Source: an uncultured Gammaproteobacteria bacterium
GTDB lineage: Bacteria > Patescibacteriota > Microgenomatia > Levybacterales > UBA12049
NCBI GenBank assembly: GCA_965230895.1
Contig: OZ246394.1
Coordinates: 1,185,887 to 1,249,886, forward strand
DNA: 64,000 nt
Reading direction: 5' to 3'
Part shown: positions 43,957 to 62,646 of the stretch, piece by piece
Position numbering within the stretch: the first letter of the stretch is position 1
How the letters are laid out: every line of letters begins with the position of its first letter
The notes under the pieces: generated by a model
The model's input: only the letters and a program-made list of their open reading frames with translations
Told to the model about the DNA's origin: nothing
Databases searched by the model: none
Translations under genes and position numbers: made by a program

Positions 43957-44043
43957 GGAGGAGTCGGATAGCGGTCTATTCCACACGCTTGGAAAGCGTG
44001 CGAGCGCAAGCTCACGCGGGTTCGAATCCCGCCTCCTCCGCCA
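43957..44043 (+). tRNA. tRNA-Ser (anticodon GGA), type II, CCA encoded
   Basis: Acceptor GGAGGAG/CTCCTCC, anticodon arm CACGC-TTGGAAA-GCGTG, long variable arm, 3' GCCA. Confidence 0.85.
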
Positions 44044-44108: not shown

Positions 44109-44552
44109 ATGCAAACTGATCGATTTCACCTTATTGGCGCCGTTTTTATTATTCTAGAAAAGGATGGTAAAGTCTTCCTCACTCGTAGACAAAATACAGG
44201 TTGGGAAGATGGTAAATATTCACTTACTGGTGGTCATTTAGACGGAGAAGAAACAGCAAAACAAGCAGCAATACGAGAAGCTAAAGAAGAATTAGGCGTT
44301 ACAATTGATCCAAACGATGTGCAGTTTGTGAACGTAAGTCATCTTATTACTAATAGTGAAAGAATCCACTTTACTTTTATTGCTAAGAGCTGGGAAGGGG
44401 AACCCCGAAATAATGAACCTGAGAAAGCTGACGATGGCCAATGGTTTGATATCGATAATTTACCTGAGAATATAATGGAAGTATCGAAGCAAACAATTAA
44501 TTGGTATAAAAATAATATCGTCTACACAGAATTCGGTTGGGATAATAAATAA
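44109..44552 (+). CDS. Nudix hydrolase
   Basis: Nudix box GGHLDGEETAKQAAIREAKEELGV. Confidence 0.8.
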   Translation: MQTDRFHLIGAVFIILEKDGKVFLTRRQNTGWEDGKYSLTGGHLDGEETAKQAAIREAKEELGVTIDPNDVQFVNVSHLITNSERIHFTFIAKSWEGEPRNNEPEKADDGQWFDIDNLPENIMEVSKQTINWYKNNIVYTEFGWDNK

Positions 44553-44627
44553 GTTCCAACATCGTCCCACTTGGCCCGCACCTCGGATACTATTGACATC
44601 GCAAGGTAAATCCATCACACTGAAATT

Positions 44628-46610
44628 ATGCGTAGTTCTGCCCTCGCTCGTTCGTTTGCGAAATTTTTCTTTTCTTTTATTCTTTCTGCCGGTGTAGGCC
44701 TTGCCTTCTTCTTCAGCTTCGCGAACTTTGCATCAGCACAGACTGTTACTCCAATCCCTACTGCAGTTACCCAGCCAGCTACCTATGATGAGTTCCGTAC
44801 ACCAAATGTGGATCCTGATGTCCCACGAAATCATCATACATATGTACAAGTTGTTGTTATTGATCTGCTATCAGCATTAATGTGCCAAATGATAGGTGTA
44901 GATCCTACATCTCCGACACAACAATGCTTAACCTTTAACCCTGTTACAAATAATTTAGGCTATGCAGACCAACAATTTGGACAGTCGTCCTCCCCACAAC
45001 TTGGAGGAGCAGTCGGAACCATGGCGACACTAATCGGTGGTATGTATACACCAACAGTCAGCTCTACACAATACATGAGTTATCTGTCTTCAAACTTCGG
45101 TATCGTTAAGACTGCAAATGCACAGGCACCAGCTGGAGGAGATTGTTCAAAGGATACTAATTTTGGATATGGATTCTGCGGATTACAGCCTATTTTTAAT
45201 TTATGGGTAGCAATGAGAGACTTCTCATATGCGCTACTGGTAATAGCCTTTATTTTCCTGGGTGTTGGTGTGATGCTGCGTTTTAAAGTCGACCCGAGGA
45301 CAGTAATGAATCTCCAGAACCAGATTCCAAGAGTCATTATCGCGATCCTTCTTATTACGTTTTCTTATGCGATTGCCGGTGGAATGGTTGACCTGATGTG
45401 GACGGTCACATACTCTGGCGTAAATATGATTGCAAGTACTACCCCCGATGCAAAAGTTAGAGAAGGTTGCGGCAACGAACCTGGGGACGGAGTTTCATTG
45501 ACAGAATCCGCCACAAATAACTTATTAGACAATCCTGTTAGTTTTGCGAATAGAATTTATTTACGTGATTGTAATGGCGTGGATAGCGGAATTGTAAATG
45601 TTTCAGGCCGCGTAACAGATGCATTCATTGCGCTGGCTATAAGCATCATCAAGGAGATCACTGGATGGAATATAGACAATCTTAATTGCGGCGTTATTAC
45701 AGGAAATATTGGTGATTGTCTTGTTGAAGCAGGACTATGGCTAACTGAGCTGATCATCACACTTATTATCTTGGTGACTATATTTATTGCTCTTTTCCGA
45801 CTATGGTTTGAACTTATAAAGGCTTATATTACCTTCTTTATTTTCGTAATTCTTGGTCCGATATGGATTGTGCTAGGACTTGTGCCGGGAAGACCTCTCG
45901 GCTTTGAGAAATGGTTCAGATTGATCTTTGCAAACCTTGCAGCGTTCCCACTTGTAGCTTTTATTCTTGTCTTCGCTCGAGTTGTTGTGGAGTCTGTACA
46001 AAAAGACCCAACAGTACCTGTTAATCCGACAGCAATCTTTGTTCCACCACTTGTAGGAAATCCTAATGCAAATGCATTCGGGGTACTCCTCGCTTTAGGG
46101 GCAATTCTTATCGCGCCAACCATCCCAGGCATGATCCGCGAAAGAATGAAGGTTGGACAAGGTAAGTTCGGTACGACAATTGCAGCAGGACTTGGTATTG
46201 CGACAGGAATTGCAGCAGCGCCTGCCACCAAGGCTTGGAAGAGTCTTAATAGAAGGAATTCAACAACAGGAGCTCCTGAGGGAACTTTGGCAGTATGGAA
46301 GCATCGAGCTGCCGGAAAGGTACCTGGTGTAAAAACCTTACGAGCACGAAATGCGGCAACAAGGCAACAATACGCTGCCGAGCAACAAGGACAAAATCTT
46401 TCAAGAAGAGAAGCACTCTTTAATACAGCAACAGAAGGTGGAGCAAGAAGACAACGTATTTTCGGAAGAGCAACTAATCAAGAACAACAAAGGATGTATA
46501 GCAAAACATCGGGAGAGGAGAGACAAAATCTTTTCAATCAAGCGTCATCCCAACAAAAGCAAAACCTTATCAACCAAGATCACGACGAGGCAAAGAAACA
46601 GAATAAATAA
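44628..46610 (+). CDS. polytopic membrane protein, putative T4SS VirB6/TrbL-like component
   Basis: Signal peptide, about 180-aa extracytoplasmic region, then about 6 TM helices and a C-terminal Q/N/R-rich hydrophilic tail. This is architecture only, with no sequence signature. Confidence 0.35.
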   Translation: MRSSALARSFAKFFFSFILSAGVGLAFFFSFANFASAQTVTPIPTAVTQPATYDEFRTPNVDPDVPRNHHTYVQVVVIDLLSALMCQMIGVDPTSPTQQCLTFNPVTNNLGYADQQFGQSSSPQLGGAVGTMATLIGGMYTPTVSSTQYMSYLSSNFGIVKTANAQAPAGGDCSKDTNFGYGFCGLQPIFNLWVAMRDFSYALLVIAFIFLGVGVMLRFKVDPRTVMNLQNQIPRVIIAILLITFSYAIAGGMVDLMWTVTYSGVNMIASTTPDAKVREGCGNEPGDGVSLTESATNNLLDNPVSFANRIYLRDCNGVDSGIVNVSGRVTDAFIALAISIIKEITGWNIDNLNCGVITGNIGDCLVEAGLWLTELIITLIILVTIFIALFRLWFELIKAYITFFIFVILGPIWIVLGLVPGRPLGFEKWFRLIFANLAAFPLVAFILVFARVVVESVQKDPTVPVNPTAIFVPPLVGNPNANAFGVLLALGAILIAPTIPGMIRERMKVGQGKFGTTIAAGLGIATGIAAAPATKAWKSLNRRNSTTGAPEGTLAVWKHRAAGKVPGVKTLRARNAATRQQYAAEQQGQNLSRREALFNTATEGGARRQRIFGRATNQEQQRMYSKTSGEERQNLFNQASSQQKQNLINQDHDEAKKQNK

Positions 46611-46637
46611 GAAGCCGAGAATATTAGAGAAGAAGAG

Positions 46638-49622
46638 TTAATACCCTCTAAAGACTGCATTAAGGAACATAGTCACAGAATCACTTAATCCTCCATCAGA
46701 TTTATGTTTGGTTAGATCCTGCCAGAGGCCACGAAGGAACATTCTGAATTCGGTAGTCTTGGAAAGATTCTTCAACCATTTGATATCTTCTTTCGAGAAG
46801 AAGTTCTTGGTTACAGCTCCAGCAGTAAGATTAAATTCATCACCAAGGAAGTCTGCCGGGATCGAGTTAATTGCATCGAGAACTGTCGTGAAATAGTGAA
46901 CATTATAATTTGGATCTTTACTATGCTTGTCTATGTGTGTCCATAAGTCTCCCCCAAGTTTCATTAGCGCCCATTGTTTGTATGCTTGCGTTGGTTTCTC
47001 TTGGAGCTTTGTATAGTCAATCTCATAGCGACCATCAGCACCGATAATCCACTTCCCTGGTTTATCTTTTCCATTTTCATCTTTTTCACATTTACGATAT
47101 TCAGGAATGTCCAATATTTGATGCCCAAAAAGTGCCTCTCCCAACGGCATTTCTCGGAACTCATACTTATCCTTGCCATTCTTATCTCGTCCCATGAAGA
47201 CTTGATCCCGGACAAGCATGCTGTAGTTTACTTCACCAAACGTGTCAAATAAATATCGGAGCGGTTTCAAGAAATCTTCCTGAATTTCTTTCTGGAATTC
47301 TTCCCTATTGAAACTCATATGGCGGGTGAGAGGATCATACTTAGAGAATTTATCAAACTTAATCTCCTTTGCGCCCATAAGTCCATCGTATACTTTTTGA
47401 GCACGAGCGACGTGGTTCGCGACGTAATTTGTCATCGCCCGCTCATGGAACTCCAATTGTCCGGCGACACGGTTAGCGCTTTTATATAAATCTTCAAGTT
47501 CTTTCCGCTTTGCATTATATTTTTCAACATCATTTTTAGACTCCTCTATTTCTTTTTCCAAACGTTTTCTCGCTGCAAGCTGCTCAAGTCGCGTTTCGTT
47601 CATATCTTCAAAGACTTCACGGAGTGCTTTTTTTCGAGTTTGCTTTTTTCCGTTACGATCAACAACTTCATTGCCATCTTTATCTTTTGAATTTGTATAG
47701 GCCTGAGACACGCGAATACCATTCATGAAGTCCAACATTACTCGCTTGAACATCGGAATTGTATACAGATTACCTGCGCCATTACCACGTGAATCGGTAA
47801 CCATCTTTCGACGATATCCTTCTGTTCCCGTAAGCTTCTTTGTCGAGTCATACGCTGAAAAACCAACGTCATTTCTTGTCGCAGCTCCAGAAAAACGTAG
47901 CCATGATTTGGCGAGAAGAAGCGCCATATCCAAACTCGCATTGTCGACCACCATTGCATCACCATGATCGAGGGCATGTTCGTCAACTGCATAGATATTC
48001 TGTTCTCCCGAAGTAAATGAATGCTGGTCTTGAAGCGAAATTTTGAGTGCCTCTCGTACCACTTTTTCTAGCATTCCACTGTAGGCCATAGCGCCAAAGT
48101 AGTTTGCAAACGCTGAAAATCCACCTTTCTTTTCACCGGTTTTTGGGTCAATCTGATATTCCACAGCGTTTCCCTCTTTGTCAAAAGCAGCATCAAAACC
48201 ATTTGCTTGATCACCTAGGAATACCATCATTTCATCACGGCTAACGCGAGTTTGTTTATGTTTGCTTTTTACAACATTCTTCATCGCTTGCTTCCATGTA
48301 TCCTTCTGGAAGAATATTGAATCTTCCCCCATGACATTCTGCAATTCTTTGAAATCAGCCAGATTATAGTAGGCAAGCAAAGCCGTCGTAAATGCTGCTC
48401 CGACTTTATCATCAGGTTGTTCTTTGTTGTAGTCAAGCGCAAACGTAGACATAAAGTATGTCATGCTTTTACCATAGGAGGATTTTGTAATCTTATTCTT
48501 ATAATACAACTCGTTCAATTTCTTCGTGAGGTCTCCACCGCTTGACATCACTGTCTGGTAGTTTAGATCATAGTTTCGGAGATACATGACAGACAGCACT
48601 TCTTTAAGCAATTGATCATAAAGCTCTGTATTCATATGATTATCTTCATCATTAAAGAAACGAGATTTTTCGTCGATGAGGTCGTCAAGGGTAACAGGGC
48701 GGTATTCTTTTGGAATTTTGACTGCATGAAAGAAATCCACTTCAGAATCTGGTTCTTTATCATCAGCATAGAAGACGATAATCGTACGCATCCATCGCAT
48801 AAAATTTGCGTTATTCACATGATATCTTCCTCTAAATTCACCTTTCTCATCTTTCCGTACTTCCATCTGCATGATTGGGTATCGTCCATTAATACCAAAT
48901 TCAGCAGAGTCGTTGTAACCGATTTGCCAACCAAGTTGCTCTAATCCTTGAGGAGTTTTACTATCGTATTCGTTTTTATTCTCGTCGTTGAATTCATCAT
49001 AAAGAACATATTTGCGGACATATTCATCACGATCGATGCCAAGTCCGTGCGTTTCATTTGTGAGGAGCACTCGTTTTCTATAGTCTTTGCGGCTCCCACC
49101 ATATCGTTCTACGTAACGATCGACCTCGGCCTGAATTTCATTTTCGGCCTTATCACTCAAGTTAAGCATTTCACGGGTTTTGGCAACTGCCGCATCACCT
49201 GTGTAACCCTGGCCGACGAGGATTTCCATGAGGTTGTTAATTTTCCCTCGGACAGCTCTCTTTTCAAGCTCTGTCATAGCTGTTTCATCCCAATCAAGTA
49301 TTTTTTTGAGGTTCTCAGCAACTTCTTTTTTTTGTTTATTCTCTTCATTTTCTACATCCCAACCAAATTCCTTCCAGCTATCCATTTTACGAAGTACTGT
49401 TCCTTGTTTTTTCTCGGCTTGTTCCGCTTCAACACCAGCATCTAAGCCTGCTTCAAACTCTCGGAGCTCTTCCTCAATCTCAGACCATCTTTTCGGAGAA
49501 ATTCTTTTTGCAGCTGCAACGGCCTCTTCTGCAGAGTTTTCGGCAACATCTACTCCACCTTCATTCATAGTTCTATTATATCGGCTTGCGGAGAAGCCAG
49601 TCAATTCACTGTGGTTTTCCAT
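46638..49622 (-). CDS. large (994 aa) soluble protein of unknown function
   Basis: Uninterrupted ORF with no TM and no recognisable catalytic motif; sits between the VirB6-like gene and the regulator. Confidence 0.5.
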   Translation of the reverse strand: MENHSELTGFSASRYNRTMNEGGVDVAENSAEEAVAAAKRISPKRWSEIEEELREFEAGLDAGVEAEQAEKKQGTVLRKMDSWKEFGWDVENEENKQKKEVAENLKKILDWDETAMTELEKRAVRGKINNLMEILVGQGYTGDAAVAKTREMLNLSDKAENEIQAEVDRYVERYGGSRKDYRKRVLLTNETHGLGIDRDEYVRKYVLYDEFNDENKNEYDSKTPQGLEQLGWQIGYNDSAEFGINGRYPIMQMEVRKDEKGEFRGRYHVNNANFMRWMRTIIVFYADDKEPDSEVDFFHAVKIPKEYRPVTLDDLIDEKSRFFNDEDNHMNTELYDQLLKEVLSVMYLRNYDLNYQTVMSSGGDLTKKLNELYYKNKITKSSYGKSMTYFMSTFALDYNKEQPDDKVGAAFTTALLAYYNLADFKELQNVMGEDSIFFQKDTWKQAMKNVVKSKHKQTRVSRDEMMVFLGDQANGFDAAFDKEGNAVEYQIDPKTGEKKGGFSAFANYFGAMAYSGMLEKVVREALKISLQDQHSFTSGEQNIYAVDEHALDHGDAMVVDNASLDMALLLAKSWLRFSGAATRNDVGFSAYDSTKKLTGTEGYRRKMVTDSRGNGAGNLYTIPMFKRVMLDFMNGIRVSQAYTNSKDKDGNEVVDRNGKKQTRKKALREVFEDMNETRLEQLAARKRLEKEIEESKNDVEKYNAKRKELEDLYKSANRVAGQLEFHERAMTNYVANHVARAQKVYDGLMGAKEIKFDKFSKYDPLTRHMSFNREEFQKEIQEDFLKPLRYLFDTFGEVNYSMLVRDQVFMGRDKNGKDKYEFREMPLGEALFGHQILDIPEYRKCEKDENGKDKPGKWIIGADGRYEIDYTKLQEKPTQAYKQWALMKLGGDLWTHIDKHSKDPNYNVHYFTTVLDAINSIPADFLGDEFNLTAGAVTKNFFSKEDIKWLKNLSKTTEFRMFLRGLWQDLTKHKSDGGLSDSVTMFLNAVFRGY

Positions 49623-49688
49623 AGTAGGCGCATTGTAAAAGAAGAAGGGAGAATGTACTTTATATTGAAATTACAAAATAATTACAAT

Positions 49689-51017
49689 TTAGCTTATAAA
49701 TTTGAAGCCACGGCCTTTAATTGTATGGAGATGTGTCGGATGATTTGCATCTTCCTCAATTTTTCGCCGTACACGAAAAATAAGCTGATCCACGGCCTGA
49801 TCCGTGATACCTGCTGTTGACTTCATGCTCGACCATACTACGTTAATAAGTTCTTCCCGGTCCACAACTCGATCCTCATTCTGTAGCAAGTAGGTCAGCA
49901 AACGAAACTCAGATGAGGTGAGCTGGTCAGAAAGAATTGTCGAACCCTTCTTAATAGTATTAGTATTTTGATCATAAATAATTTTCTTTGATGTACTATT
50001 TTCCGTACCAGAATCTGAAGCCACAAACGCCGAAAGGAGCGGGATCTGCACAATATTATCTTTTAATAACCCTATGTTTTGGAGATATGTACGGACTTCT
50101 TCCTCTTCAAAACTATTCTCTTGGATATCAGCTTGTTCTGCAGGAGAAAGTGACAACCATATCTCACGTAAAGCACTCTTTATAGTTTTCTGCGCTAATA
50201 GATACTTTTGGAGATCGTCAGGGATCTCGCCATAACCAAGTAACGACTCTACTGCAATTTTGGTCAATTTACCATGTCCACCAGTCAGCTTCAACACGGC
50301 ATCGAGAACAGATTTTTCAAGTTTTTTGCTGGAAACTTTCTCTACAAATGATAGGCGATGTTTCGAAAAGACTTCATCATATAAAGAGACATAGACAATC
50401 TTCCCTGCAACAAATTCATAATAATCTGCAAGAAGTGATGGCTCCAAAAGATCTTCCAAAGGCCGATTTACAGAAAATACAATTGAGAAATGATATTTTG
50501 CTCGATTCCTAAGAATTCTCAAGTTACTAAAGAATTCCACAGGTACAGTACGGATATATTCCTCAAAGCGACTAAAGAGGAAGACCGTGGTTAGCTTGCG
50601 TTCCAATGCAAGGTAATCGATTGCTTCTTTGAATCCTTGGAAAAGAACCAGTTCATCATTGAATTGTAAATGCTCACGGAACTTATCTCCAACAACCTGG
50701 TTCTCTGCCTTCAAGCCACGTTCGCGTAACGACTCAGTTAAATTGAGGAAGAGAAATTTCATAACATCAAAGAGTGGTCGTGTTTTAATCTCAGAAAAGT
50801 CTACGATGACGAAATGCGTATTCTTTTGAGCATCCTTCAGGTATTTTTGTCTGATCTTACTATTATTTGCCAACAGCCCGAGGATTGTTGAACGACTGAC
50901 ACCCGGCATTCCGACAACCTGGCAAGAATTACCTTCCTTAATATATTGGATAATTTTTGAGATTTCCTCTTCACGTGTTGTGTCTGGAAATTGTGCTTCA
51001 AAATATTCTTCTACCAT
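49689..51017 (-). CDS. AAA+/P-loop ATPase fused to C-terminal OmpR/PhoB-type winged-helix DNA-binding domain (putative regulator)
   Basis: N-terminal VVGMPGVSRSTILGLL P-loop-like segment with hhhhD-type Walker B candidates (FVIVDFSE, VFLFSRFEE). C-terminal LTSSEFRLLTYLLQNEDRVVDREELINVVW...DQLIFRVRRKIE...TIKGRGFKF matches the trans_reg_C signature. Confidence 0.6.
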   Translation of the reverse strand: MVEEYFEAQFPDTTREEEISKIIQYIKEGNSCQVVGMPGVSRSTILGLLANNSKIRQKYLKDAQKNTHFVIVDFSEIKTRPLFDVMKFLFLNLTESLRERGLKAENQVVGDKFREHLQFNDELVLFQGFKEAIDYLALERKLTTVFLFSRFEEYIRTVPVEFFSNLRILRNRAKYHFSIVFSVNRPLEDLLEPSLLADYYEFVAGKIVYVSLYDEVFSKHRLSFVEKVSSKKLEKSVLDAVLKLTGGHGKLTKIAVESLLGYGEIPDDLQKYLLAQKTIKSALREIWLSLSPAEQADIQENSFEEEEVRTYLQNIGLLKDNIVQIPLLSAFVASDSGTENSTSKKIIYDQNTNTIKKGSTILSDQLTSSEFRLLTYLLQNEDRVVDREELINVVWSSMKSTAGITDQAVDQLIFRVRRKIEEDANHPTHLHTIKGRGFKFIS

Positions 51018-51101
51018 ACTATGATTCTAATTTGTTTCAAGCCAATCTTCAAGTAAATTTCTATGCTTGCATAGCATGCAGTTCTTTAGTATCGTAGATT
51101 T

Positions 51102-51428
51102 ATGGACTACTTAGCACTTACCTTACCAGGGAATAGATCAATTGAACCACCTGCAGGAGCAAATTTGCCCACAGGAGGATTAGACACATTATCCAATGCT
51201 ATTAGCGTCGGAATTTCATGGATGATTATTATTGCAATCATCCTTTCCTTATTTTTTCTTGTAACAGGAGGTATTGCTTGGTCTTCATCTGGTGGAGATA
51301 AGGGCAAAATTGCAGCTGCAAGAGCAAGACTTACGTATGCTCTTGTTGGTTTACTCGTAGCAATTTCAGCGTTCTTCATAATTAATGTATTCGGAACCTT
51401 TTTGGGCGTTAAATTCTTTGGGAATTGA
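51102..51428 (+). CDS. VirB2/T4SS-pilin-like small hydrophobic protein, paralog 1
   Basis: Shares the TM-GGIAWSSSGGDKGKIAAARARLTYALVGLLVAISAFFI core with the next two genes; N-terminal region lacks a clear signal peptide. Confidence 0.45.
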   Translation: MDYLALTLPGNRSIEPPAGANLPTGGLDTLSNAISVGISWMIIIAIILSLFFLVTGGIAWSSSGGDKGKIAAARARLTYALVGLLVAISAFFIINVFGTFLGVKFFGN

Positions 51429-51467
51429 GATAATCTGATCTATTGACAAAGATTAAATTATTGTTCT

Positions 51468-51896
51468 ATGATGAATAAAGATAATATGAAAAAAGTTCTA
51501 ACAGCGATAGTTTCAGGAAGTGCAGCATACCTTGCAACAGCAGGATACGCATTAGCAGGAACAAGTGTTGATCCATGTGATGGTATCCAAAGTGGATTTG
51601 ATACGCTTTGCGGTCTTAGTGGAGATAATCTTGGAGCAATTATTGGTGCTGCTGTTACCTTCATCTTGATTGTTGCAGTTCTTATCGCTCTCTTCTTCCT
51701 TATCTTTGGAGGTATCCGATGGATCACATCAGGTGGAGATAAAGCAAAAGTAGAAAGTGCACGAGGCACTATTATCGCAGCAATCATTGGTTTAGTTATC
51801 GCTTTCTTAGCATTCTTCATCCTCTCACTCGCTTTGAGTTTCTTCGGCTTGAGTCTCTCAAACCTTCAACTCCCTACACTCGAAGGAATCAACTAA
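51468..51896 (+). CDS. VirB2/T4SS-pilin-like protein, paralog 2
   Basis: Signal peptide (real start probably MKKVLTAIV at 51486), two TM helices flanking GGIRWITSGGDKAKVESARG. Confidence 0.55.
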   Translation: MMNKDNMKKVLTAIVSGSAAYLATAGYALAGTSVDPCDGIQSGFDTLCGLSGDNLGAIIGAAVTFILIVAVLIALFFLIFGGIRWITSGGDKAKVESARGTIIAAIIGLVIAFLAFFILSLALSFFGLSLSNLQLPTLEGIN

Positions 51897-51973
51897 GATT
51901 CTCTTTACATTTACTCTAATTGATATTGTTATACCTCTTGCATTCTATTAAATATCTTTGCTAGGCTAATTAT

Positions 51974-52372
51974 ATGTTAAAGAAATTACTTGTATCAGCT
52001 CTAGCTGTAGTAACTTTATTTTTCGCTACGGCACCAGTCGCGCCTGTACATGCACAATTTCGGGATTGGGATCAAGGTTGTTTGAAAGATGGTGTAGCAT
52101 CACTTCGATGTATTCCATTTGTGTTTGGAAATATTGTAACAGCTCTTCTTATCTTTGTAGGGACAGTAGCTGTTATCTTGCTCGTTTATGCGGGCATTCG
52201 ATTTATCACATCAGGTGGAGACCCAAAGAAAGTTGCAGGGGCACGACAAATAATTACGTACGCCATAATTGGATTAGTACTTGTATTATCATCGTTCCTA
52301 ATAATTACACTCATCAGTTACACAACTGGCGTCGAATGTATCAGGACGTTTGGATTTGCTAACTGCAAATAG
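51974..52372 (+). CDS. VirB2/T4SS-pilin-like protein, paralog 3
   Basis: Signal peptide MLKKLLVSALAVVTLFFATAPVAPVHA; core AGIRFITSGGDPKKVAGARQIITYAIIGLVL. Confidence 0.55.
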   Translation: MLKKLLVSALAVVTLFFATAPVAPVHAQFRDWDQGCLKDGVASLRCIPFVFGNIVTALLIFVGTVAVILLVYAGIRFITSGGDPKKVAGARQIITYAIIGLVLVLSSFLIITLISYTTGVECIRTFGFANCK

Positions 52373-52601
52373 TTCCAAACTTTTCACACTTGAGGCTAAA
52401 CCACTACTCCTTTTGACATACTTTGTTGGGGTTGCAATCAAATTTTTCACGTTATACACTTTTAGCAACAGAAGACATCATTTCGAGTCTTTAATCGGGT
52501 ATTAGAGCATGCTATCCGAGACAGCAAAAGAAACTCAGTATTATCCATCATTTGCTTTGTTTATTTCGTTCACAGTGTGCTTAGAATTTATCTAACTATT
52601 T

Positions 52602-54002: not shown

Positions 54003-54010
54003 TAAATACT

Positions 54011-54676: not shown

Positions 54677-56718
54677 TGAATTTGCCATTTGGAAAAAAAG
54701 CTAACCCAGCAGCTCCTACAGCTGCACCTGTTGCAGGACAAAAACCTGCAGTAGCGGCCGCAAAGCCAGGTGCTGCTCCAGCAAAAGGGAAAGCTCCTGC
54801 TGCGCCAGTTTCAAAAGGCATAGACACATTTGAAAAAGGTCTTACGTCTGTCGTGGACCTTATTGCCCCATCATCAGTAGAAGTTGATTTCCGGTATATT
54901 CGAGTTGGAGACAACTTCTATACTACGCTTTTTATTGCAGGATACCCACGTTATGTATCACCTGGTTGGCTTGAAGGCATTATCGATTACGATCATACAA
55001 TGGATATTGCGATGTTTTGCTATCCAACCTCCTCTTCTGATGTCCTCGCAGATTTGAAAAGAAAAATTGGAGAAATGCAGGCAACACTTGCGTCAGATGC
55101 TGAACAAGGAAAAGTTGCAGATCCGACAGTTGAAGCTGCTCTTGAAGATGCTTTGGGCCTCCAGGAAGAACTTGCAAAGGGCGTTGAAAGATTCTTCCAA
55201 TTTGGTTTTTATATTACCGTCTCAGATGGCGATATCACAAGGCTTCAGGAAACAATTAAAAATCTTCAAACAGCACTCAACGGGCTTTTGCTTACAGGAA
55301 AAATTGCAACGCTGCAAATGGAAGAAGGATTTAAATCATCACTTCCGATTGGACAAGACAGACTCTATATTACTCGTAATATGGATACCTCATCTTTGGC
55401 TTCGACCTTTCCATTTACCTCTGCTGTTTTGACGCAAAACAGAGGTGTTATGTACGGTGTGAACCAACAAAATGGATCGCTCATCATTTTTGATCGGTTC
55501 TCTTTGGAAAATGCAAACGAAGTTGTACTCGGAAAATCCGGTGCAGGAAAATCTTTTACGATTAAGCTTGAGATCATGCGGCAATTCATGCTTGGAGCCG
55601 AAGTTATTGTTATTGATCCTGAAGGAGAATATGAGACAATGACCCCTGCTCTTGGCGGTGAAGTTGTAGAGTTCTCATCAGGTTCGGCGATAAAAATTAA
55701 TCCGTTTGACCTCTCAGATATTTATGAAGAGGGAGAAAATGAACTTGGATTGAAGATTCTCTCACTACATGGTCTACTCAAAATTATTACAGGTGATCTT
55801 GATGCAGAACATGATGCGATTCTTGATCGTGCGCTTATTGAAACATATAAATCTAAAGGTATTACTACAGATCCTGCAACACAAAAGAAACAACCACCGT
55901 TAATGGAAGATTTATACAAAATCCTTCTTGGTATGGAAAATGAGCCAGCACGTGAGTTGGCATATACCCTTGAGAAGTTTATTAAAGGTAGTGCTTCTGG
56001 CATCTTCAATCAACAATCAAACTTTGAGATTAACAATCCGCTTACAGTTTTCTCTATTCGAAATCTCGAGGAAGCACTCCGTCCAGTGGCAATGCATATC
56101 ATTCTTGATTTCGTTTGGACCAAAGTTAAACGATCATTGAAAAAGCGTATTTTGATCCTTGATGAAGGTTGGTACATGATGAAGTATCAAGACTCAGCCT
56201 CATTCGTTTATTCAATTGCCAAACGTGCTCGTAAATACTTCCTTGGGATGACAACTGCCACACAGGATGTTGAAGACTTTTTGAAAAACGAATACGGAAA
56301 AGCTGTCCTTACCAACTCGTCTATTCAGGTGCTTCTCAAACAAGGTACAGCAGAAGTTGATATGATTACCGACACTTTCTACCTTTCAGAGGGAGAGAAA
56401 GCCTTACTGCTTTCTGCGGACGTAGGAGAAGGCCTTTTCTTTGCTGGACAGAATCACGTAGCAATGAAGGTTTTTGCGGCTCCTTTTGAACATGAACTCA
56501 TCACATCCAACCCAATGGAACTCCTTAAAAGACAGCAGGAGAAAGAGCGCGCAAATCTAGCAGAAGGTATTAAACCGGAAGCAGAGCCCGGCCAGACATC
56601 AGTAGAGAATCCTTCAGTAGCTCCTGCCACCGAACCTGGAATACCTTCGGTAGAAAATCCTGATATCCCCTCAACTCCGCCGCCAGGAACACCTCCAGGT
56701 GGGAATCCAAATGCTTAA
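54676..56718 (+). CDS. virB4: type IV secretion system ATPase VirB4/TrbE/CagE family (Gram-positive TraE/PrgJ-like)
   Basis: Walker A VVLGKSGAGKS, Walker B RILILDEGW; N-terminal domain YTTLFIAGYPRYVSPGWLEGII typical of VirB4. Confidence 0.85.
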   Translation: MNLPFGKKANPAAPTAAPVAGQKPAVAAAKPGAAPAKGKAPAAPVSKGIDTFEKGLTSVVDLIAPSSVEVDFRYIRVGDNFYTTLFIAGYPRYVSPGWLEGIIDYDHTMDIAMFCYPTSSSDVLADLKRKIGEMQATLASDAEQGKVADPTVEAALEDALGLQEELAKGVERFFQFGFYITVSDGDITRLQETIKNLQTALNGLLLTGKIATLQMEEGFKSSLPIGQDRLYITRNMDTSSLASTFPFTSAVLTQNRGVMYGVNQQNGSLIIFDRFSLENANEVVLGKSGAGKSFTIKLEIMRQFMLGAEVIVIDPEGEYETMTPALGGEVVEFSSGSAIKINPFDLSDIYEEGENELGLKILSLHGLLKIITGDLDAEHDAILDRALIETYKSKGITTDPATQKKQPPLMEDLYKILLGMENEPARELAYTLEKFIKGSASGIFNQQSNFEINNPLTVFSIRNLEEALRPVAMHIILDFVWTKVKRSLKKRILILDEGWYMMKYQDSASFVYSIAKRARKYFLGMTTATQDVEDFLKNEYGKAVLTNSSIQVLLKQGTAEVDMITDTFYLSEGEKALLLSADVGEGLFFAGQNHVAMKVFAAPFEHELITSNPMELLKRQQEKERANLAEGIKPEAEPGQTSVENPSVAPATEPGIPSVENPDIPSTPPPGTPPGGNPNA

Positions 56719-56764
56719 TACGCATTCGCTTATCTCATCTTCTGGTTTCTGATACTATTAATAT

Positions 56765-59533
56765 ATGGCCACTGATACCAAACCTAAAGACGAAGTAGAA
56801 AATGGACTAGTTGATCCTAAAAAAAAAGAACAACAAGAACAAGATCACGAATTTGAACTCCATCAAATAGCCCAAACCGCAAGTGGCAGAATACGTCGTT
56901 ATGGATTACGATTAAAGGCAGGACCAAAGCTCCATCAGGAAGTTAATGAATTAGCCGAAACTATTGAAAAAAGCATCACTTCACTCGCAAAGAAGGCACG
57001 ATCCGAAGACGCGCTACTTATTCAGGTTGAGGAAGAAATTCATAAAGTTGAGAAATATATTGATTCTGAAGCAAAGGCAGAGCACAAAAAAGAGAAAGAC
57101 GAAGAAGAGCGAGAAAAAAAAGAGAAGGAGGAAAAAGAACATCATGGAGGGCACGAGGAACATGAAGAGCATGATACAAGCCGCCACGAACAAGAAAAAC
57201 CTGCCAGCGCAAATAAAACGGTTGAGGAAAAAAGTCGAGATAAAGTAGAAGAACTAAAGGCTGAAATTGCAGCCGGAATAGCTGGAACTGCCGCGAGCAC
57301 AACCGTAGGATCTTCCCAAGCTTTTACTGATGAGCGCGCCAAACAACTCAAGGCAGAACAGGAAGCATATTTATCAGAAGCTGAAAAAGCAAGAATCGCA
57401 GCACTCCCCCCTGAAGAAAGAGCAAAAGTACGCTTAGAACAGATTAGAAATGGGACATACAAGAAACCTGAGATATCTGTGAAGCCTTCTGAAGGAGCTA
57501 AACCGAGAACAGATGCCGAAGCAGTTGAAGGATTTCATAAACAGCAACGCCCAGATGCAGCAAAAAAACGCCTCGAGCAATTGAGAGAAGAAGTACGATC
57601 ACAGAGAACTACCACCGGTGCACAAAAAAGCGTGAGAAAAATGGGGAGAAGCGCGCCTGCGCAAAGAAAACAATTAAGGACACAGACTCCTGGTTCAGTG
57701 ATACCAACTCGCCCCATGCCTCCACGACGAGTGCAAACAAGGATTTCTGCTGGGACAAGCCGACGAGGACCTGGGGGAAAAATAACTACAACATCAACTA
57801 CTGAGAGTATATTCTCTCATGACGACGGGAGAACATACGAAGACATTACCGAATTTAGAATGCGAAGGCCGATGCCTTCAACCATGACGACAGAGGCAGA
57901 AACACGTGGTGGATCATACGGACATGGTTCAGGTGGCTCACAAGGTGGCGGATCTGAGCATGGAGGTGACAGTGGCGGTGGCAGCGGAGGATCAGGTGGA
58001 GGAAACAACAGAGGTGGTTTAGGTCGAGCAAATCCTTTAAGAAATATTATGCGTGGAGGATTAGGTGGAGGACCAAAAGGATTAGCAAGCAAAGGACTTC
58101 AGGGATTAGCGAAAAACGGAACAAAGGTTGCTGCACAAGCCGCTCTGCGTAATCCTTATGTACTTGCTGCACTTGCAGTATTACTTATAGTTATTTTCCT
58201 TATATTATTTATCCTTGTACTTCTTGGTGATGCTGAAGAACAAAATCAGAAGAACGCATGCCAGGCTCCAGCCGAAACACTAAAAGCAACGATAACAGGA
58301 CCTGCAGCTGCAAATGCAGGCCAAGAACTAACATATGCAGTAAATATTACTGACACGGTTGCTGCACAAGATATTACAGTTGTAGCAACTATACCTCAAG
58401 GACAAACGTTCGTAAGATCAGATTGGGCAAAAAGCGTCGTCACAGGAAATACTGTAACCTGGAAGGCTGTGGAGAATCTCCCGCCAAACAGTTTAAGCCC
58501 CCCAAACTTTACTTTTAATATTACAGTTAGTCCAGGTGCAGCAAATACAAATTCTGTAATCATGGTTGATGCAACCCCTGTGAGAGCAGCCGCTATTGCT
58601 CCAGGCGGTGGTGGAGATCAACAGGCAGGAAGACAGAAAAGCACTGAAGAATTAAAGTCAATTTATGGTGCAGATCAGGCTGCGGTTGAAGCCAATCTTG
58701 TCACAATCAACTTTCAAGGAAAACAAGTTCAGGTACACAAACTTGTTCAAGGCGTATTTGAAAAAGTGAATAATGAAATAACAGCTGCAAATACCGGATA
58801 TGAATTTAGACAGGTTGGTACGTATGCATGGCGTACAAAGAATATTCCAGGTCAAAATTCTACAGAACTTTCAACACATAGTTTTGGGATAACCATGGAT
58901 ATTAATCCTGATACCAATCCTTACACTACGGCCAATACTCATGATATTCCGCAGCCAATCGTAGACATTTTCAAAAGAAACGGATTTATCTGGGGTGGTG
59001 ATTGGACGCCACAGCATGACTGGATGCATTTTGAATATGCTGGAGCACCAGGAGCAGTGCCAGGATCTGGAAATACTGGTGGCGGATGTAACCCAGGAGC
59101 TGGGGCACCAGTAAATGCAAATTATGTCCCTCCAAGTGCAGATACTTGTGGAGGTAAATATAAATTAACCAGTCCTCTTAAGATGAATTTTGGAGATCCA
59201 CAGTGTAATTTTAATAAAGACGCTTTATATTCACAATTAAAGACTGAGGATCCTGCAAATGCTGATGTTTGGTTTAACAAAGTCGTGCCTTGTGAAAGTG
59301 GATATAATCCAAATGCATATGCTGGTCCAAGTACGGGTACCCCCGACGCTGCAGGAGCATGGGGTCTATATCAAATGGGTAGTGCAAACCCGCCAGGTTC
59401 CCCACCTCCTGCACCTGGTAAAAATGGAATTAATGATCGTGGAGATGTACCGTGGACAATACAAACAACTAATGCGACTACATATGGTAAAAAAATTGCG
59501 AGACTTGGAGCATATTGGGCATGTGCTAGATAA
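56765..59533 (+). CDS. membrane-anchored cell-wall hydrolase with peptidase M15 (VanY-like) and lytic-transglycosylase-like domains (VirB1/PrgK-like)
   Basis: TM LAALAVLLIVIFLILFILVLL; DUF11-like segment; M15 zinc motifs STHSFGITMDIN and DWMHFEY; SLT-like CESGYNPNAY...GAWGLYQM. N-terminal half E/K/G-rich low complexity. Confidence 0.6.
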   Translation: MATDTKPKDEVENGLVDPKKKEQQEQDHEFELHQIAQTASGRIRRYGLRLKAGPKLHQEVNELAETIEKSITSLAKKARSEDALLIQVEEEIHKVEKYIDSEAKAEHKKEKDEEEREKKEKEEKEHHGGHEEHEEHDTSRHEQEKPASANKTVEEKSRDKVEELKAEIAAGIAGTAASTTVGSSQAFTDERAKQLKAEQEAYLSEAEKARIAALPPEERAKVRLEQIRNGTYKKPEISVKPSEGAKPRTDAEAVEGFHKQQRPDAAKKRLEQLREEVRSQRTTTGAQKSVRKMGRSAPAQRKQLRTQTPGSVIPTRPMPPRRVQTRISAGTSRRGPGGKITTTSTTESIFSHDDGRTYEDITEFRMRRPMPSTMTTEAETRGGSYGHGSGGSQGGGSEHGGDSGGGSGGSGGGNNRGGLGRANPLRNIMRGGLGGGPKGLASKGLQGLAKNGTKVAAQAALRNPYVLAALAVLLIVIFLILFILVLLGDAEEQNQKNACQAPAETLKATITGPAAANAGQELTYAVNITDTVAAQDITVVATIPQGQTFVRSDWAKSVVTGNTVTWKAVENLPPNSLSPPNFTFNITVSPGAANTNSVIMVDATPVRAAAIAPGGGGDQQAGRQKSTEELKSIYGADQAAVEANLVTINFQGKQVQVHKLVQGVFEKVNNEITAANTGYEFRQVGTYAWRTKNIPGQNSTELSTHSFGITMDINPDTNPYTTANTHDIPQPIVDIFKRNGFIWGGDWTPQHDWMHFEYAGAPGAVPGSGNTGGGCNPGAGAPVNANYVPPSADTCGGKYKLTSPLKMNFGDPQCNFNKDALYSQLKTEDPANADVWFNKVVPCESGYNPNAYAGPSTGTPDAAGAWGLYQMGSANPPGSPPPAPGKNGINDRGDVPWTIQTTNATTYGKKIARLGAYWACAR

Positions 59534-59559
59534 ATTAAAATTAGCAGTATAATAAGACT

Positions 59560-60129
59560 ATGAAAAGAAAGAAAGAAGACTATTTTGTTATTGGATTAGG
59601 TGTCGTACTTGTTGTCGTTATTTTTATGATAGCTTTTATAGTTGCAAAGGAAAATCAACAAAAGCCAGAAGAAAATATAAGCATTGTCCCAACAGATAGC
59701 CCAACAGCAGCACCAGTACCGACAAGACAAACAGACCAGCCAAATAGCAATCCACCTGTTCTCTATGATGATAATGCGCAAAATAAACTTGTGGCATATG
59801 TAAAGGCGAGACAGCCAATCTCAGATACAGATAAGCTAGCTAAAGCAAAAATGTTGGCATTACGTCCTGAAAATCAAATGTCGGGAGTTATTCATCAAAC
59901 GCAAAATATAAGAATTGACTACACCAGATCTGCAGATCTTTTCCAGGTTGAAATACTAACAACAAATGTACAAGATGCAAAAAATGAAGCTAATATATGG
60001 CTTCGAACTCAAGGATTAAGTCAAGACGGAATTTGCAAATTACCTATTGGCTTCTACCTTAACTACGATATCGCTAACGAATTAAGAGAAACGGGATATG
60101 TATTTAATCCTTTAGCAAATGGCTGTTAA
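59560..60129 (+). CDS. membrane-anchored extracytoplasmic protein, paralog A1 (ends FNPLANGC)
   Basis: N-terminal TM; domain shares SDTDKLAKAKM...ADLFQVEILTT...DGICKLPIGFYLNYD...FNPLAxGC with A2. Confidence 0.45.
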   Translation: MKRKKEDYFVIGLGVVLVVVIFMIAFIVAKENQQKPEENISIVPTDSPTAAPVPTRQTDQPNSNPPVLYDDNAQNKLVAYVKARQPISDTDKLAKAKMLALRPENQMSGVIHQTQNIRIDYTRSADLFQVEILTTNVQDAKNEANIWLRTQGLSQDGICKLPIGFYLNYDIANELRETGYVFNPLANGC

Positions 60130-60631
60130 TATGCAATTTATAAAAAGTAATAAAAAATTAGTTTTTTTTGTATTACTTTTACTAATAGTATTTCCTATAA
60201 GTTTATCTCTTTATCGACTTGAGCCTCAAAATAGCGAAAAGAAGACAAAGGAGACTCCTCCAATAAAGGAATCTGCTCAAGCTGTCGATCCAGAGAAAAG
60301 GCTTCTTGATTACATTCAAAATAGACGCCCTTTATCAGACTCAGATAAACAAGCTAAAAATACTATCATTCAAAGAGTTGATCAATCTGGGATTGCATTC
60401 AGATCTGACACAATATCAATCGAGTATATAAAGTCTGCAGATATGTTCCAAGTCGAAATATTATCAACGAAAACTGATGTTGCAAAAGAGGAAGCAGTAA
60501 ATTGGTTCAGGCAAAACGGTATGAGCAAAGACGGTTTATGTAATTTACCTATTAGCTTTTATCTCAATTATGAAGTCGCAAATACTAATTCGCAGGAAGA
60601 TACATTTAATCCACTCGCACCAGGTTGTTGA
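60119..60631 (+). CDS. membrane-anchored extracytoplasmic protein, paralog A2 (ends FNPLAPGC)
   Basis: Tandem duplicate of A1; 11 nt overlap. Confidence 0.45.
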   Translation: MAVNMQFIKSNKKLVFFVLLLLIVFPISLSLYRLEPQNSEKKTKETPPIKESAQAVDPEKRLLDYIQNRRPLSDSDKQAKNTIIQRVDQSGIAFRSDTISIEYIKSADMFQVEILSTKTDVAKEEAVNWFRQNGMSKDGLCNLPISFYLNYEVANTNSQEDTFNPLAPGC

Positions 60632-60679
60632 AAGTGTATGAACTTGCGCACTTACAAGTGAGCTTGATATGATGATTTT

Positions 60680-61354
60680 ATGAACGCTAATTTTTTGTCT
60701 AAATCGATCAATTTTATAAAAGGAAATAAAGCCATTGTAATAGCTGTAGCATTAGTTATTTTATTCATTTATATTTTAGTTGTTTCAATTACTGCAACAT
60801 CTTCACAAAAGAATCCAAGAGATCCAAACTCCCCTGATCCAACAAGAAGTTCATCTTCCGGAGGAGGACCAGTCCCAACAGCATCAAAGGATGTTTCCAT
60901 ATACGAGCCGAACACAGTTTGGCAACCCACAAGATTTTCAGAGAGTAGTATCCAAAACGTTTTAATTGAAAAAACACAATTAAACGATGGTTCGACAAAA
61001 TACAAATATCAATCTGAAGATCCAAAAAGACCCAATGAACTAATCGTTAAAGATAATGAAGTTATTTATCAACGAACTGTTATAAAGAACAAATACATAT
61101 ATAACTATACCAATACTCTTGGCGCTCCAGACTTTGTTTTTGAAAGTTCAAAATATTATGGTCCAAGTACAATGATTTATGTCTATCTTAAGAGCGGGAC
61201 AGCATTTGTAGCAGACGATAAGACAACAATTGTAAAAGAGCAATTATCTTTTAAACCAACTTCTTTTGAGCAATTTCGAGACAAATATGGAGACGATATT
61301 GCTGATTACAAGATTATACCAACACTTCCAGATGAAGATTTTGCACGACCATAG
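60680..61354 (+). CDS. membrane-anchored extracytoplasmic protein, paralog B1
   Basis: N-terminal TM, S/P/G-rich linker; shares DGS..Y...S..P.R...IVK......GP..YGP.T.IY.Y...GTA...F.P.S..EF pattern with B2. Confidence 0.45.
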   Translation: MNANFLSKSINFIKGNKAIVIAVALVILFIYILVVSITATSSQKNPRDPNSPDPTRSSSSGGGPVPTASKDVSIYEPNTVWQPTRFSESSIQNVLIEKTQLNDGSTKYKYQSEDPKRPNELIVKDNEVIYQRTVIKNKYIYNYTNTLGAPDFVFESSKYYGPSTMIYVYLKSGTAFVADDKTTIVKEQLSFKPTSFEQFRDKYGDDIADYKIIPTLPDEDFARP

Positions 61355-61360
61355 AATCAT

Positions 61361-61990
61361 ATGCTCATAAGATATATTATTGCCATTGTAATATCATTAA
61401 GTCTTCTTGTTATGCTGCCTATAATTGATATCCCCTCTTATGCCGCTGTAAAGGCATGTTTCTTAACCAAGATTGGACCCAATGCACCAGCAGACTTTAC
61501 GATGCCTCCAGGATGTGGAGGTGATATAAGTGGAGATGCCAAACAGCTTGCGCAACAAATATTAAATAATCCGAAGATAACTCTCTCTTCTCAAGCACGA
61601 CAAGACATCCAAGCAACAGTCGATGGTAAGCAAATACAGAATTCCGATTCGTGCAACAATGCTGTGAGTTTGAGTCCGGCCTTATTAAAACTTATTCTTC
61701 AAATAGCCCAAACGCATTCATACGACTTAAATTACATAATTACACAGCATGGATGCGATACTGCATATCATCCCAAAGGCAGGGCAATGGATATCGGTAA
61801 AGCCGATGGTCAAAGCAGTTGGCAAAACACACAGTTCCGCCAAGATGTCGCGAATCTTTTACCCGAAGGTGGAGGACTAGGCCAACAAGGTTGTCCTGCA
61901 AGTGCTGGTGTTTCAGGGAAAAATTCTATTCGTCAATTTGCTGATGCATGCACCCACCAGCACGTTGATGTGGGAGCAACAGCACAATAA
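61361..61990 (+). CDS. secreted small peptidase M15-like (Hedgehog/DD-peptidase fold) protein
   Basis: Signal/TM N-terminus; YHPKGRAMDIG (HxxGxAxD) and THQHVDV His motifs resemble LAS/M15 zinc ligands. Confidence 0.35.
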   Translation: MLIRYIIAIVISLSLLVMLPIIDIPSYAAVKACFLTKIGPNAPADFTMPPGCGGDISGDAKQLAQQILNNPKITLSSQARQDIQATVDGKQIQNSDSCNNAVSLSPALLKLILQIAQTHSYDLNYIITQHGCDTAYHPKGRAMDIGKADGQSSWQNTQFRQDVANLLPEGGGLGQQGCPASAGVSGKNSIRQFADACTHQHVDVGATAQ

Positions 61991-61992
61991 TC

Positions 61993-62646
61993 ATGAGAAA
62001 CTCTTCCAATGTATTTAACTCAATTCTTAAAGGTAATTTTGCATATATACTACTTGGCGGCGCGCTTATAATTCTTCTTCCGATTATCTTTGTCTTCAAT
62101 TCGTATTCTTCTGAAAATTTGAGTAAAGAAGAACCGACACCGACTGGTGAGTCTCAGCAATCAGCATCTGGAGGAAAAGCACCTGCAAACAGAATTTCAC
62201 CAACAAAAAATCCGACAGGCACTACAATCTCTGATGAAAAAAATGCAGTAGAATCAGGACCAGTTTCTTTTTCAAATCTGAGCGAAATTGCAAATGACGC
62301 ACAAAAGCAAACCCAAAGCGATGGATCAGTCATCTATACCTTTGAGTCGCTCCATCCAAATCGATCGGACATGATTATTGTAAAAAATGGATCAATTATT
62401 TTTTCTCGACATGCGGTCGTCGGAGTGGGAGCAAGTGATAAATATAAAAGCCTTTTAGAGAAGCAAGCAAAAACAATCCAAGGCCCAACATTTTACGGAC
62501 CAAATACTTTAATTTATTTCTATGAGAATGGCGGTACAGCACTTATTGCAAATCCTCAAACCGATACAACATATGAAGAATTTACATTTCAACCTCCAGT
62601 ATCACTTGCGGAATTCAATTCTACATATAAGAAATATACTCTATAG
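61993..62646 (+). CDS. membrane-anchored extracytoplasmic protein, paralog B2
   Basis: Paralog of B1 (see above). Confidence 0.45.
   Translation: MRNSSNVFNSILKGNFAYILLGGALIILLPIIFVFNSYSSENLSKEEPTPTGESQQSASGGKAPANRISPTKNPTGTTISDEKNAVESGPVSFSNLSEIANDAQKQTQSDGSVIYTFESLHPNRSDMIIVKNGSIIFSRHAVVGVGASDKYKSLLEKQAKTIQGPTFYGPNTLIYFYENGGTALIANPQTDTTYEEFTFQPPVSLAEFNSTYKKYTL

Follow-up and report, generated by a model that had tools for sequence, protein, structure and literature searches.

A probably vertically inherited, origin-proximal type IV secretion system locus of Patescibacteria type on a Candidatus Levybacteria chromosome

Introduction

The type IV secretion systems (T4SSs) of Patescibacteria, or candidate phyla radiation (CPR), are the closest described relatives of the locus reported here, which lies at 44628-62646 of a 64-kb stretch of DNA (contig OZ246394.1, positions 1,185,887 to 1,249,886, assembly GCA_965230895.1), hereafter the window, to which all coordinates refer. 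The window comes from the chromosome of a Candidatus Levybacteria (class Microgenomatia, Patescibacteria). In Southlakia epibionticum, transposon sequencing showed that growth on the host requires the genes SEML1_0006-0019, including a pilin array, and neither a coupling protein nor a relaxase could be recognised in association with this T4SS (Wang et al. 2023, Cell; PMC10633639). A survey of 3,035 genomes found that the VirB4 proteins of Patescibacteria form one monophyletic clade inside MPF-FATA, that virB4 has TrsD, PrgI/VirB3, VirB6 and VirB2 arrays in its vicinity and peptidase and lysozyme genes downstream, and that dnaA/dnaN lie near virB4 in Microgenomatia and Paceibacteria; relaxases were almost absent, and the coupling protein (T4CP) was usually far away (Quinonero-Coronel et al. 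2025, Microb Genom; PMC12102498). According to a 2025 FEMS review (PMC12857230) and a 2024 PNAS perspective (PMC11665869), the function of Patescibacteria T4SSs is unknown, and effector delivery, DNA or nutrient uptake and a pilus conduit have been proposed. These systems were the first T4SSs shown to be essential for their bearer, are the only monoderm ones with VirB2 pilins, and are counted among the more intriguing systems recently added to the T4SS superfamily (PMC12857230, PMC11665869).

We read the region as a vertically inherited, origin-proximal T4SS locus typical of Patescibacteria, derived from MPF-FATA systems with loss of the DNA-processing module, and give this reading a probability of roughly 0.88. 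The system shares with the Patescibacteria clade (PMC10633639, PMC12102498) an MPF-FATA-type VirB4 next to a TrsD-like gene, PrgI/VirB3, a putative VirB6, tandem divergent VirB2-like pilins, a peptidase and lysozyme-type hydrolase directly downstream of virB4, the lack of a relaxase, a T4CP located elsewhere, and a chromosomal site beside dnaA/dnaN. It is a further example of an already described system and not a new one, because PMC10633639, PMC12102498 and PMC12857230 already cover such systems. It brings no new principle, and its value is that of a clean, complete Microgenomatia example. What goes beyond the accounts in PMC10633639 and PMC12102498 is an accessory set specific to Levybacteria: a novel-fold family of about 1000 amino acids (aa), a regulator that combines a STAND-NTPase with a winged helix-turn-helix (wHTH), and two families of ectodomain proteins, A and B.

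Compared with the conjugative T4SSs of MPF-FATA type (pGO1 Trs, pCF10 Prg, pIP501 Tra and CTn2/CD1110), the locus has a VirB4 that passes the CD1110-family model, TrsD- and PrgI-like partners, a polytopic VirB6/PrgH-type protein and an anchored two-domain wall hydrolase, and like them it has no outer-membrane core components. Unlike these systems, the cluster has no relaxase or oriT, no adjacent coupling protein, no PrgB-type adhesin and no detected VirB8/PrgL-like fold, and it occupies a fixed chromosomal locus instead of being mobile. It also differs from Gram-positive systems in having VirB2-type pilins, and its hydrolase carries an M15 (LAS) peptidase where the Gram-positive prototypes have CHAP.

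VirB4 ATPase, TrsD-like and PrgI-like proteins

The VirB4 ATPase (680 aa, CD1110/MPF-FATA type; 54676-56718, plus strand) scored 383.5 bits against NF045971, 'VirB4-like conjugal transfer ATPase, CD1110 family', for which the cutoff is 325. It matched P-loop_TraG (1e-25), AAA_10 and DUF87 in Pfam, and both the Walker A motif GKSGAGKS and the Walker B motif ILILDEGW were found in its sequence. Its best plasmid matches were conjugation ATPases of Firmicutes and Actinobacteria at 31-37% identity. An earlier reading made from the DNA letters alone (the sequence-only reading) had named a VirB4 ATPase with solid motifs, and the model score and motifs bear this out.

The alignment to NF045971 covered only model positions 181-734, leaving the N-terminal ~180 model residues missing. 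Directly upstream, a TrsD-like protein of 221 aa (54011-54676, plus strand), whose stop codon overlaps the virB4 start codon, matched the VirB4 N-region model NF045975 VirB4_plasma at 7.4e-9 and the TrsD model NF041427 at 4.7e-4, and its precomputed annotation is PF26593 TraC-like. Based on these matches, it appears to be a free-standing VirB4 N-terminal domain that would supply the part missing from VirB4. The PrgI/VirB3-like membrane protein (466 aa; 52602-54002, plus strand) scored 36.4 bits against PF12666 PrgI (cutoff 27) and consists of the PrgI region, a linker rich in Pro, Ala and Gln and, at the C-terminus, a CarboxypepD_reg (Ig-like) domain (3e-6), an architecture that recurs in two distantly related loci, L084 and L086. 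Both the PrgI-like and the TrsD-like gene had been missed by the sequence-only reading, so that its parts list was incomplete; the genes it did list were all found in place among the 16 substantial open reading frames (ORFs) of the interval 44109-62646.

To place these genes among relatives, one genome per GTDB species was scanned for virB4, which gave 79 loci with 46-93% identity, and every window protein was searched by tblastn in these loci with 10-kb flanks around virB4. TrsD was present in 74 of the 79 loci and PrgI in 70. While only 22.6% of Microgenomatia VirB3 homologues were virB4-associated in PMC12102498, PrgI is adjacent in the window and in these 70 relatives.

VirB4 also has an Ala/Pro/Lys-rich low-complexity N-terminal extension of about 45 aa (54676-54810) and a Pro-rich C-terminal tail (56590-56718). 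Long low-complexity linkers occur in the PrgI-like protein and the hydrolase as well.

A VirD4-type T4CP homologue of 794 aa is encoded at 9609-11993 on the minus strand and matched TrwB_AAD_bind (3e-10), T4SS-DNA_transf (1e-8) and TraG-D_C (2.7e-5). Its gene is unlinked to the cluster, ~43-45 kb from virB4, in agreement with the distant coupling ATPase of the sequence-only reading, and a T4CP gene lay less than 10 kb from virB4 in only 2 of the 79 related loci. The protein is a candidate partner of the T4SS.

Pilins and a divergent VirB6-like protein

Upstream of the PrgI-like gene, three tandem plus-strand genes encode VirB2-type pilins, as had been proposed. Pilin 1 (108 aa; 51102-51428) forms a hairpin of two transmembrane (TM) helices, pilin 2 (142 aa; 51468-51896) has two TM helices, and pilin 3 (132 aa; 51974-52372) has a signal peptide and two TM helices. 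Against PF18895 T4SS_pilin, with a cutoff of 26.6 bits, pilins 2 and 3 scored above it at 40.3 bits (E 3.3e-10) and 37.1 bits (E 3.5e-9), and pilin 1, at 26.0 bits, fell 0.6 bits under it. The three are mutually 28-40% identical, pilin 1 aligns with both others, and all share the loop GGIxWxxSGGDxxK between the two TM helices. Pilins were found in 43-45 of the 79 loci.

In the distant relatives L084 (1202-6937) and L086 (1341-7037), the pilin region additionally encodes TraX, of the F-pilin acetylase family, a GT87 glycosyltransferase and proteins of 340-353 aa with a T4SS_pilin domain, which hints at pilin modification. None of these occurs in the window.

At the left end of the cluster, a protein of 660 aa (44628-46610, plus strand) has a signal peptide, about seven TM segments and a basic, Gln-rich C-terminal tail by hydropathy analysis. 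The window protein matched nothing in Pfam, NCBIfam or PDB, and a profile searched against PDB sequences also gave no match. When its orthologues were searched, 5 of 15 matched PF04610 TrbL/VirB6 with a best E of 5.5e-5; the membrane topology of the window protein also suits a VirB6. Because of these orthologue matches we accept the protein, with moderate confidence, as a divergent VirB6, in line with the VirB6-like polytopic protein of the sequence-only reading. VirB6 was described as 'scarce' in Microgenomatia by PMC12102498, whereas the window has this divergent VirB6-like gene 10 kb upstream of virB4.

A two-domain cell-wall hydrolase

The VirB1-analogue cell-wall hydrolase (922 aa; 56765-59533, plus strand) consists of a charged, Gly-rich N-terminal region, a TM helix at residues 469-487, a Peptidase_M15_4 domain (LAS; 1.8e-17) and a Cys-rich C-terminal domain. 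The M15 domain resembles the L-Ala-D-Glu peptidase of the phage endolysin Ply500 (2vo9, 3e-4). The C-terminal domain carries the motif 'CESGYNPNA...WGLYQM'; in the window copy it had no Pfam match even at E<=5, and 11 of 23 orthologues matched PF01464 SLT in this domain. A profile of the C-terminal family matched C-type lysozymes in PDB (E 1.3e-3), with an invariant Glu aligned with the catalytic Glu. The call of a VirB1-type enzyme with both M15 peptidase and lytic-transglycosylase parts is therefore upheld by the SLT matches of the orthologues and the lysozyme match of the profile. At the level of sequence, the protein has a glycosidase domain with a catalytic Glu, a second, peptidase domain and a membrane anchor. 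The hydrolase was found in 31 of the 79 loci.

Conservation and inheritance of the locus

The gene order VirB6-like/994-aa/regulator/pilins/PrgI/TrsD/VirB4/hydrolase/A/B/dnaN is kept among relatives, with dnaN downstream on the opposite strand. In the window, dnaN (62655-63764, minus strand) abuts the right end of the cluster, and in 53 of the 79 loci it lies within 10 kb of virB4, so that the comparison of synteny suggested by the sequence-only reading yielded the same gene order beside dnaN. Family A was found in 28 loci and family B in 12-16; the counts for the regulator (25), the VirB6-like protein (20) and the 994-aa protein (14) are too low because of the 10-kb flank limit. Beyond dnaN, past the end of the window, contigs encoding identical proteins carry dnaA, rnpA, yidD, yidC and jag, and the cluster therefore adjoins the replication-origin gene set. 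The plus-strand genes from the pilins to B2, the last gene before dnaN, are separated by short gaps or overlap.

Correctly labelled records among the 79 loci were metagenome-assembled genomes of Candidatus Levybacteria/Levyibacteriota, Microgenomates or Patescibacteria. Many others (L001, L005 and L007 among them) are titled 'uncultured Gammaproteobacteria/Pseudomonadales', 'Acidiferrales', 'Sulfotelmatobacter' or 'Nanoarchaeia'. On near-identical Levybacteria T4SS loci, such titles look like mislabelled submissions and not a real taxonomic spread.

The left flank of the cluster is tRNA-Ser(GGA) (43957-44043, plus strand), which together with dnaN on the right agrees with the borders given before. 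The cluster itself does not begin at 44109, as the sequence-only reading had it. The gene at 44109-44552 encodes a NUDIX hydrolase (Pfam 1.9e-20), a housekeeping protein outside the T4SS, whose place is taken by msrA in the distant relatives L084 and L086 while the cluster itself is kept.

A tRNA gene at one border, a GC content of 0.40-0.45 against a window mean of ~0.38 and a VirB4 of conjugative-plasmid type would fit a decayed integrative and conjugative element (ICE) at tRNA-Ser(GGA), with relaxase and integrase lost or outside the window. However, Pfam scans of every ORF of at least 150 aa in the 64 kb found no relaxase, integrase or recombinase domain, as had been reported, and a search for att sites and direct repeats at the tRNA and dnaN borders returned only short chance repeats, with no copy of the tRNA 3' end. 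The GC peak falls on the Gly/Ala/Pro-rich part of the hydrolase gene, housekeeping genes at 11-17 kb reach a comparable GC, and composition gave no convincing foreign signature. Furthermore, the dnaN-anchored order is kept across genomes whose VirB4 is down to ~50% identical, without the variable position of an ICE, and the left neighbour changes in the distant relatives while the cluster is retained. A decayed ICE is thus hardly credible.

Considering the conserved dnaN-anchored synteny, the lack of relaxase, integrase and att repeat, and the unlinked T4CP, the locus appears to be vertically inherited and not recently acquired, neither an island nor an ICE. The sequence-only reading had called it an island, a label that misleads here; its broader view of a chromosomal, non-conjugative T4SS of Gram-positive type that is not an ICE agrees with the CD1110-type VirB4 and the evidence above.

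The 994-aa protein and the adjacent regulator

Between the VirB6-like and pilin genes, two minus-strand genes encode a protein of 994 aa (46638-49622) and a one-component regulator of 442 aa (49689-51017). Of these two, the regulator gene is the upstream one, with a 66-bp gap to the 994-aa gene, and a divergent region of 84 bp (51018-51101) separates it from the pilin operon, which suggests that the regulator controls this operon. A scan for promoter and terminator consensus sites found fewer sites than in shuffled sequence and gave no usable signal.

The sequence-only reading had found no recognisable homology in either protein and had treated the larger one as an orphan. The regulator has a clear match, however, as its C-terminal 100 residues, and only these, matched the OmpR/PhoB wHTH (Trans_reg_C, Pfam 1.2e-18), and its PDB matches were also to the wHTH only. 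The N-terminal 340 residues of the orthologues matched AAA_16 (8 of 21), AAA_22 (7 of 21) and nSTAND families. The family has a Walker-A-like motif GxPGVGRST, which in the window reads GMPGVSRST at residues ~36-44, and in all 21 aligned orthologues Arg replaces the canonical Lys. Based on these matches, the regulator is predicted to join a STAND-like NTPase to a wHTH of the OmpR type. An OmpR two-component response regulator was also considered and rejected, there being no receiver domain and only wHTH matches.

The 994-aa protein is no orphan either. An exhaustive phmmer search of 1.84 billion representatives returned a large, uncharacterised family, widespread in Patescibacteria, of at least 225 clusters, 105 of them at E<=1e-30, with members of 900-1900 aa. 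No Pfam domain was found in the 35 members tested, and a 61-sequence profile had no match in PDB. With the family alignment as input, AlphaFold produced a model with a predicted local distance difference test score (pLDDT) of 87.9 and a predicted template modelling score (pTM) of 0.86, and this predicted structure matched nothing in PDB, relaxase folds included. The 994-aa protein lacks TM helices and a signal peptide, and its N-terminus is disordered. It is among the fastest-diverging proteins of the cluster, with a median identity of 33% against 86% for VirB4 and 78% for dnaN. The most conserved stretch of the family (residues ~575-625) reads 'GAAARND..G.DA..K....YR.K.....RGG..GN' and could be an active or binding site; invariant or near-invariant residues are D404, G408, D423, N507, N584-D585, R604, G617, R789 and H896.

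The context of the 994-aa gene was examined in 20 loci: 14 from Levybacteria, two distant loci whose homologues are 1500-aa versions with 25-29% identity, and four of a third subfamily with 22-24% identity. In all 20, the gene adjoins the regulator gene, the VirB6-like gene or both wherever the contig reaches, the VirB6-like gene being beside it in 20 loci; on L089 and L090, which are short contigs, just one of these partners could be detected beside the homologue. The pilin-PrgI-TrsD-VirB4 genes lie near the homologues where the contig reaches them. This conserved linkage argues that the 994-aa protein is functionally tied to the T4SS, and the protein, the regulator and the VirB6-like protein would together form a conserved module. 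It is possible, though we would not call it probable, that the 994-aa protein is a dedicated T4SS effector or a new cytoplasmic substrate-recruitment component that replaces the coupling protein/relaxase module. If so, there would for the first time be a concrete candidate for what this essential but functionally unexplained T4SS of Patescibacteria handles.

Could the 994-aa protein instead be an unrecognised relaxase, serving DNA conjugation together with the distant T4CP? The genome does hold a T4CP homologue, the protein is large and cytoplasmic with invariant acidic and basic residues, and PMC12102498 leaves room for 'very different relaxases'. Nonetheless, searches of 72,556 plasmids and 50,697 phages gave no match to the 994-aa family, and the locus is not mobile, which makes conjugation very improbable. 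As a relaxase, transposase or known enzyme, the 994-aa protein was rejected, since the Pfam, plasmid and phage searches were empty and an IS6 match was spurious (16 bits against a cutoff of 125).

Membrane-anchored ectodomain proteins

Downstream of the hydrolase gene, five plus-strand genes encode small proteins. The membrane-anchored paralogue pairs noticed earlier were recovered: A1 (189 aa; 59560-60129) and A2 (170 aa; 60119-60631) are 41% identical (E 2e-35), B1 (224 aa; 60680-61354) and B2 (217 aa; 61993-62646) are 29% identical (E 3e-16), and each of the four has one N-terminal TM helix. Family A has 32 database homologues, none with a Pfam domain, and in its confident model (pLDDT 87) a linker joins the TM helix to a small alpha/beta ectodomain, in which two cysteines are invariant. 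A VirB8-like role had been suggested for these pairs; as VirB8/PrgL/TraM, family A failed the test for an NTF2-like fold on the predicted structure. Family B, with an ectodomain of ~150 aa in B1, has few detectable homologues, is found immediately upstream of dnaN, and had no Pfam match and no PDB match in a sequence-profile search. A common origin of A and B was rejected, as the hhalign match spanned only 21 columns and is not meaningful.

Between B1 and B2, a secreted or anchored protein of 209 aa (61361-61990) has an H..D/HxH pattern reminiscent of LAS peptidases. It had no Pfam or PDB match, is lineage-restricted and was present in only 2 of the 79 loci. The idea of a second M15/LAS peptidase was rejected, with a BLASTP E of 1.2 against the M15 domain.

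The ectodomains of A and B evolve fast, as expected of host-recognition surfaces, and the pilin array is prominent and variable. Both would suit an adhesive or sensing pilus that transports nothing. This reading is improbable: the retained VirB6-like channel protein, VirB3 and wall hydrolase fit a translocon, no purely adhesive T4SS is known, and type IV pili already provide Patescibacteria with adhesion and motility (PMC12206443; PMC9894109 as cited in PMC12857230).

Proposed mechanism and transport direction

In known T4SSs, the extraction of pilins and the assembly of the pilus are powered by VirB4, a hexameric, membrane-associated ATPase; VirB3 anchors VirB4, VirB6 serves as inner-membrane channel and assembly platform, and VirB1-type hydrolases open the wall. 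From the gene content, homologies, synteny and location observed above, we infer how the machine may be assembled and regulated, and what it may carry and in which direction. VirB4, its detached TrsD-like N-domain and the PrgI/VirB3-like anchor would sit on the cytoplasmic face of the VirB6-like channel, where VirB4 would take the three VirB2-type pilins out of the membrane and polymerise them into a pilus or conduit. The anchored M15 peptidase and lysozyme-like hydrolase would open the peptidoglycan locally, and the anchored ectodomain proteins of families A and B may decorate or stabilise the extracellular part. The STAND-like NTPase/wHTH regulator, divergent to the pilin-virB4 operon, probably controls that operon and may be co-transcribed with the 994-aa protein. 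As the favoured mechanism, the whole would be a pilus-bearing translocon at the membrane of a monoderm cell for contact-dependent transfer of macromolecules, and by extrapolation from Saccharibacteria it would serve epibiotic host-cell interaction and not conjugation.

Concerning direction, we lean slightly and tentatively to protein export over import, in which the 994-aa protein would be a candidate for the cargo or for a cytoplasmic adaptor. This idea is based on its lack of a TM helix and signal peptide, its fast evolution and its linkage in 20 loci.

The competing proposal is an import device like the H. pylori ComB or archaeal Ced system, which would bring host DNA, nucleotides or other macromolecules to an auxotrophic epibiont. 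The locus resembles ComB and the crenarchaeal Ced in being a chromosomal, non-mobile system with a VirB4-family ATPase and no relaxase, its T4CP is unlinked, and VirB4 gave a weak match to CedB (7.5e-12, 44.7 bits). Import is favoured in PMC12102498 and raised in PMC11665869, and Patescibacteria are described without nucleotide biosynthesis (PMC10633639). However, the CedB score is far under the cutoff of that family (700), neither CedA/CedA1/CedA2 nor any ComB-specific partner was detected, and ComB is a diderm VirB2-B10 system, unlike the cluster. In S. epibionticum, comEC is dispensable and the T4SS essential (PMC10633639); import would therefore need a ComEC-independent route across the membrane. 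Nutrient import by a T4SS is also without precedent. We consider import unlikely, though far from implausible.

Several points weigh against the explanation given here. The membership of VirB4 in the published Patescibacteria clade is suggested by similarity, the VirB6 assignment depends on weak matches in 5 of 15 orthologues, and no VirB8-like component was identified in the cluster, family A having failed the fold test. The linkage of the 994-aa gene fits equally a regulator-controlled cytoplasmic function unrelated to secretion. For the T4SS of Microgenomatia, essentiality and host interaction are extrapolated from a single Saccharibacterium. With these points included, our estimate for the vertically inherited T4SS locus is the one given at the outset. 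The analysis fills annotation gaps of such systems, namely the divergent VirB6, the lysozyme/SLT-like domain of the hydrolase and the lack of a VirB8 fold in family A, and the regulator with the novel-fold 994-aa protein offers a tractable lead to the cargo or control of the T4SS.

Genomic neighbourhood

The rest of the window contains housekeeping genes, including those for ribonucleotide reductase (RNR), glyceraldehyde-3-phosphate dehydrogenase, a penicillin-binding protein and tryptophanyl-tRNA synthetase. ORFs of 629, 276, 213 and 244 aa (36577-38466, 35502-36332 and 7936-9604) had no Pfam match. Two of them, at 7936-9604, flank the T4CP gene, directly upstream of which lies an ORF of 206 aa (11998-12618).

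The tRNA cluster at 41673-44043 comprises three tandem minus-strand tRNA-Ser genes with anticodons GCT, ACT and TGA, and on the plus strand tRNA-Arg(GCG), tRNA-Ser(CGA) and tRNA-Ser(GGA). The tRNA-Ser with the A34 anticodon 'ACT' and the tRNA-Arg with GCG are unusual for bacteria. Upstream of this cluster (39014-41631) are a tmRNA gene (39014-39427), a ClpP/SDH-type protease, a protein of the 'phage holin superfamily IV' with four TM segments (40567-40896) and a ComFC-like phosphoribosyltransferase (40933-41631).

On the minus strand at 12821-17942, two B12 riboswitches accompany a large RNR with a TSCPD domain and nrdR. An AdoCbl-II riboswitch (14933-15009) lies upstream of a cobalamin adenosyltransferase gene, and a Cobalamin riboswitch (14252-14376), just at the threshold, precedes an ORF of 461 aa (12821-14206) with no Pfam match.

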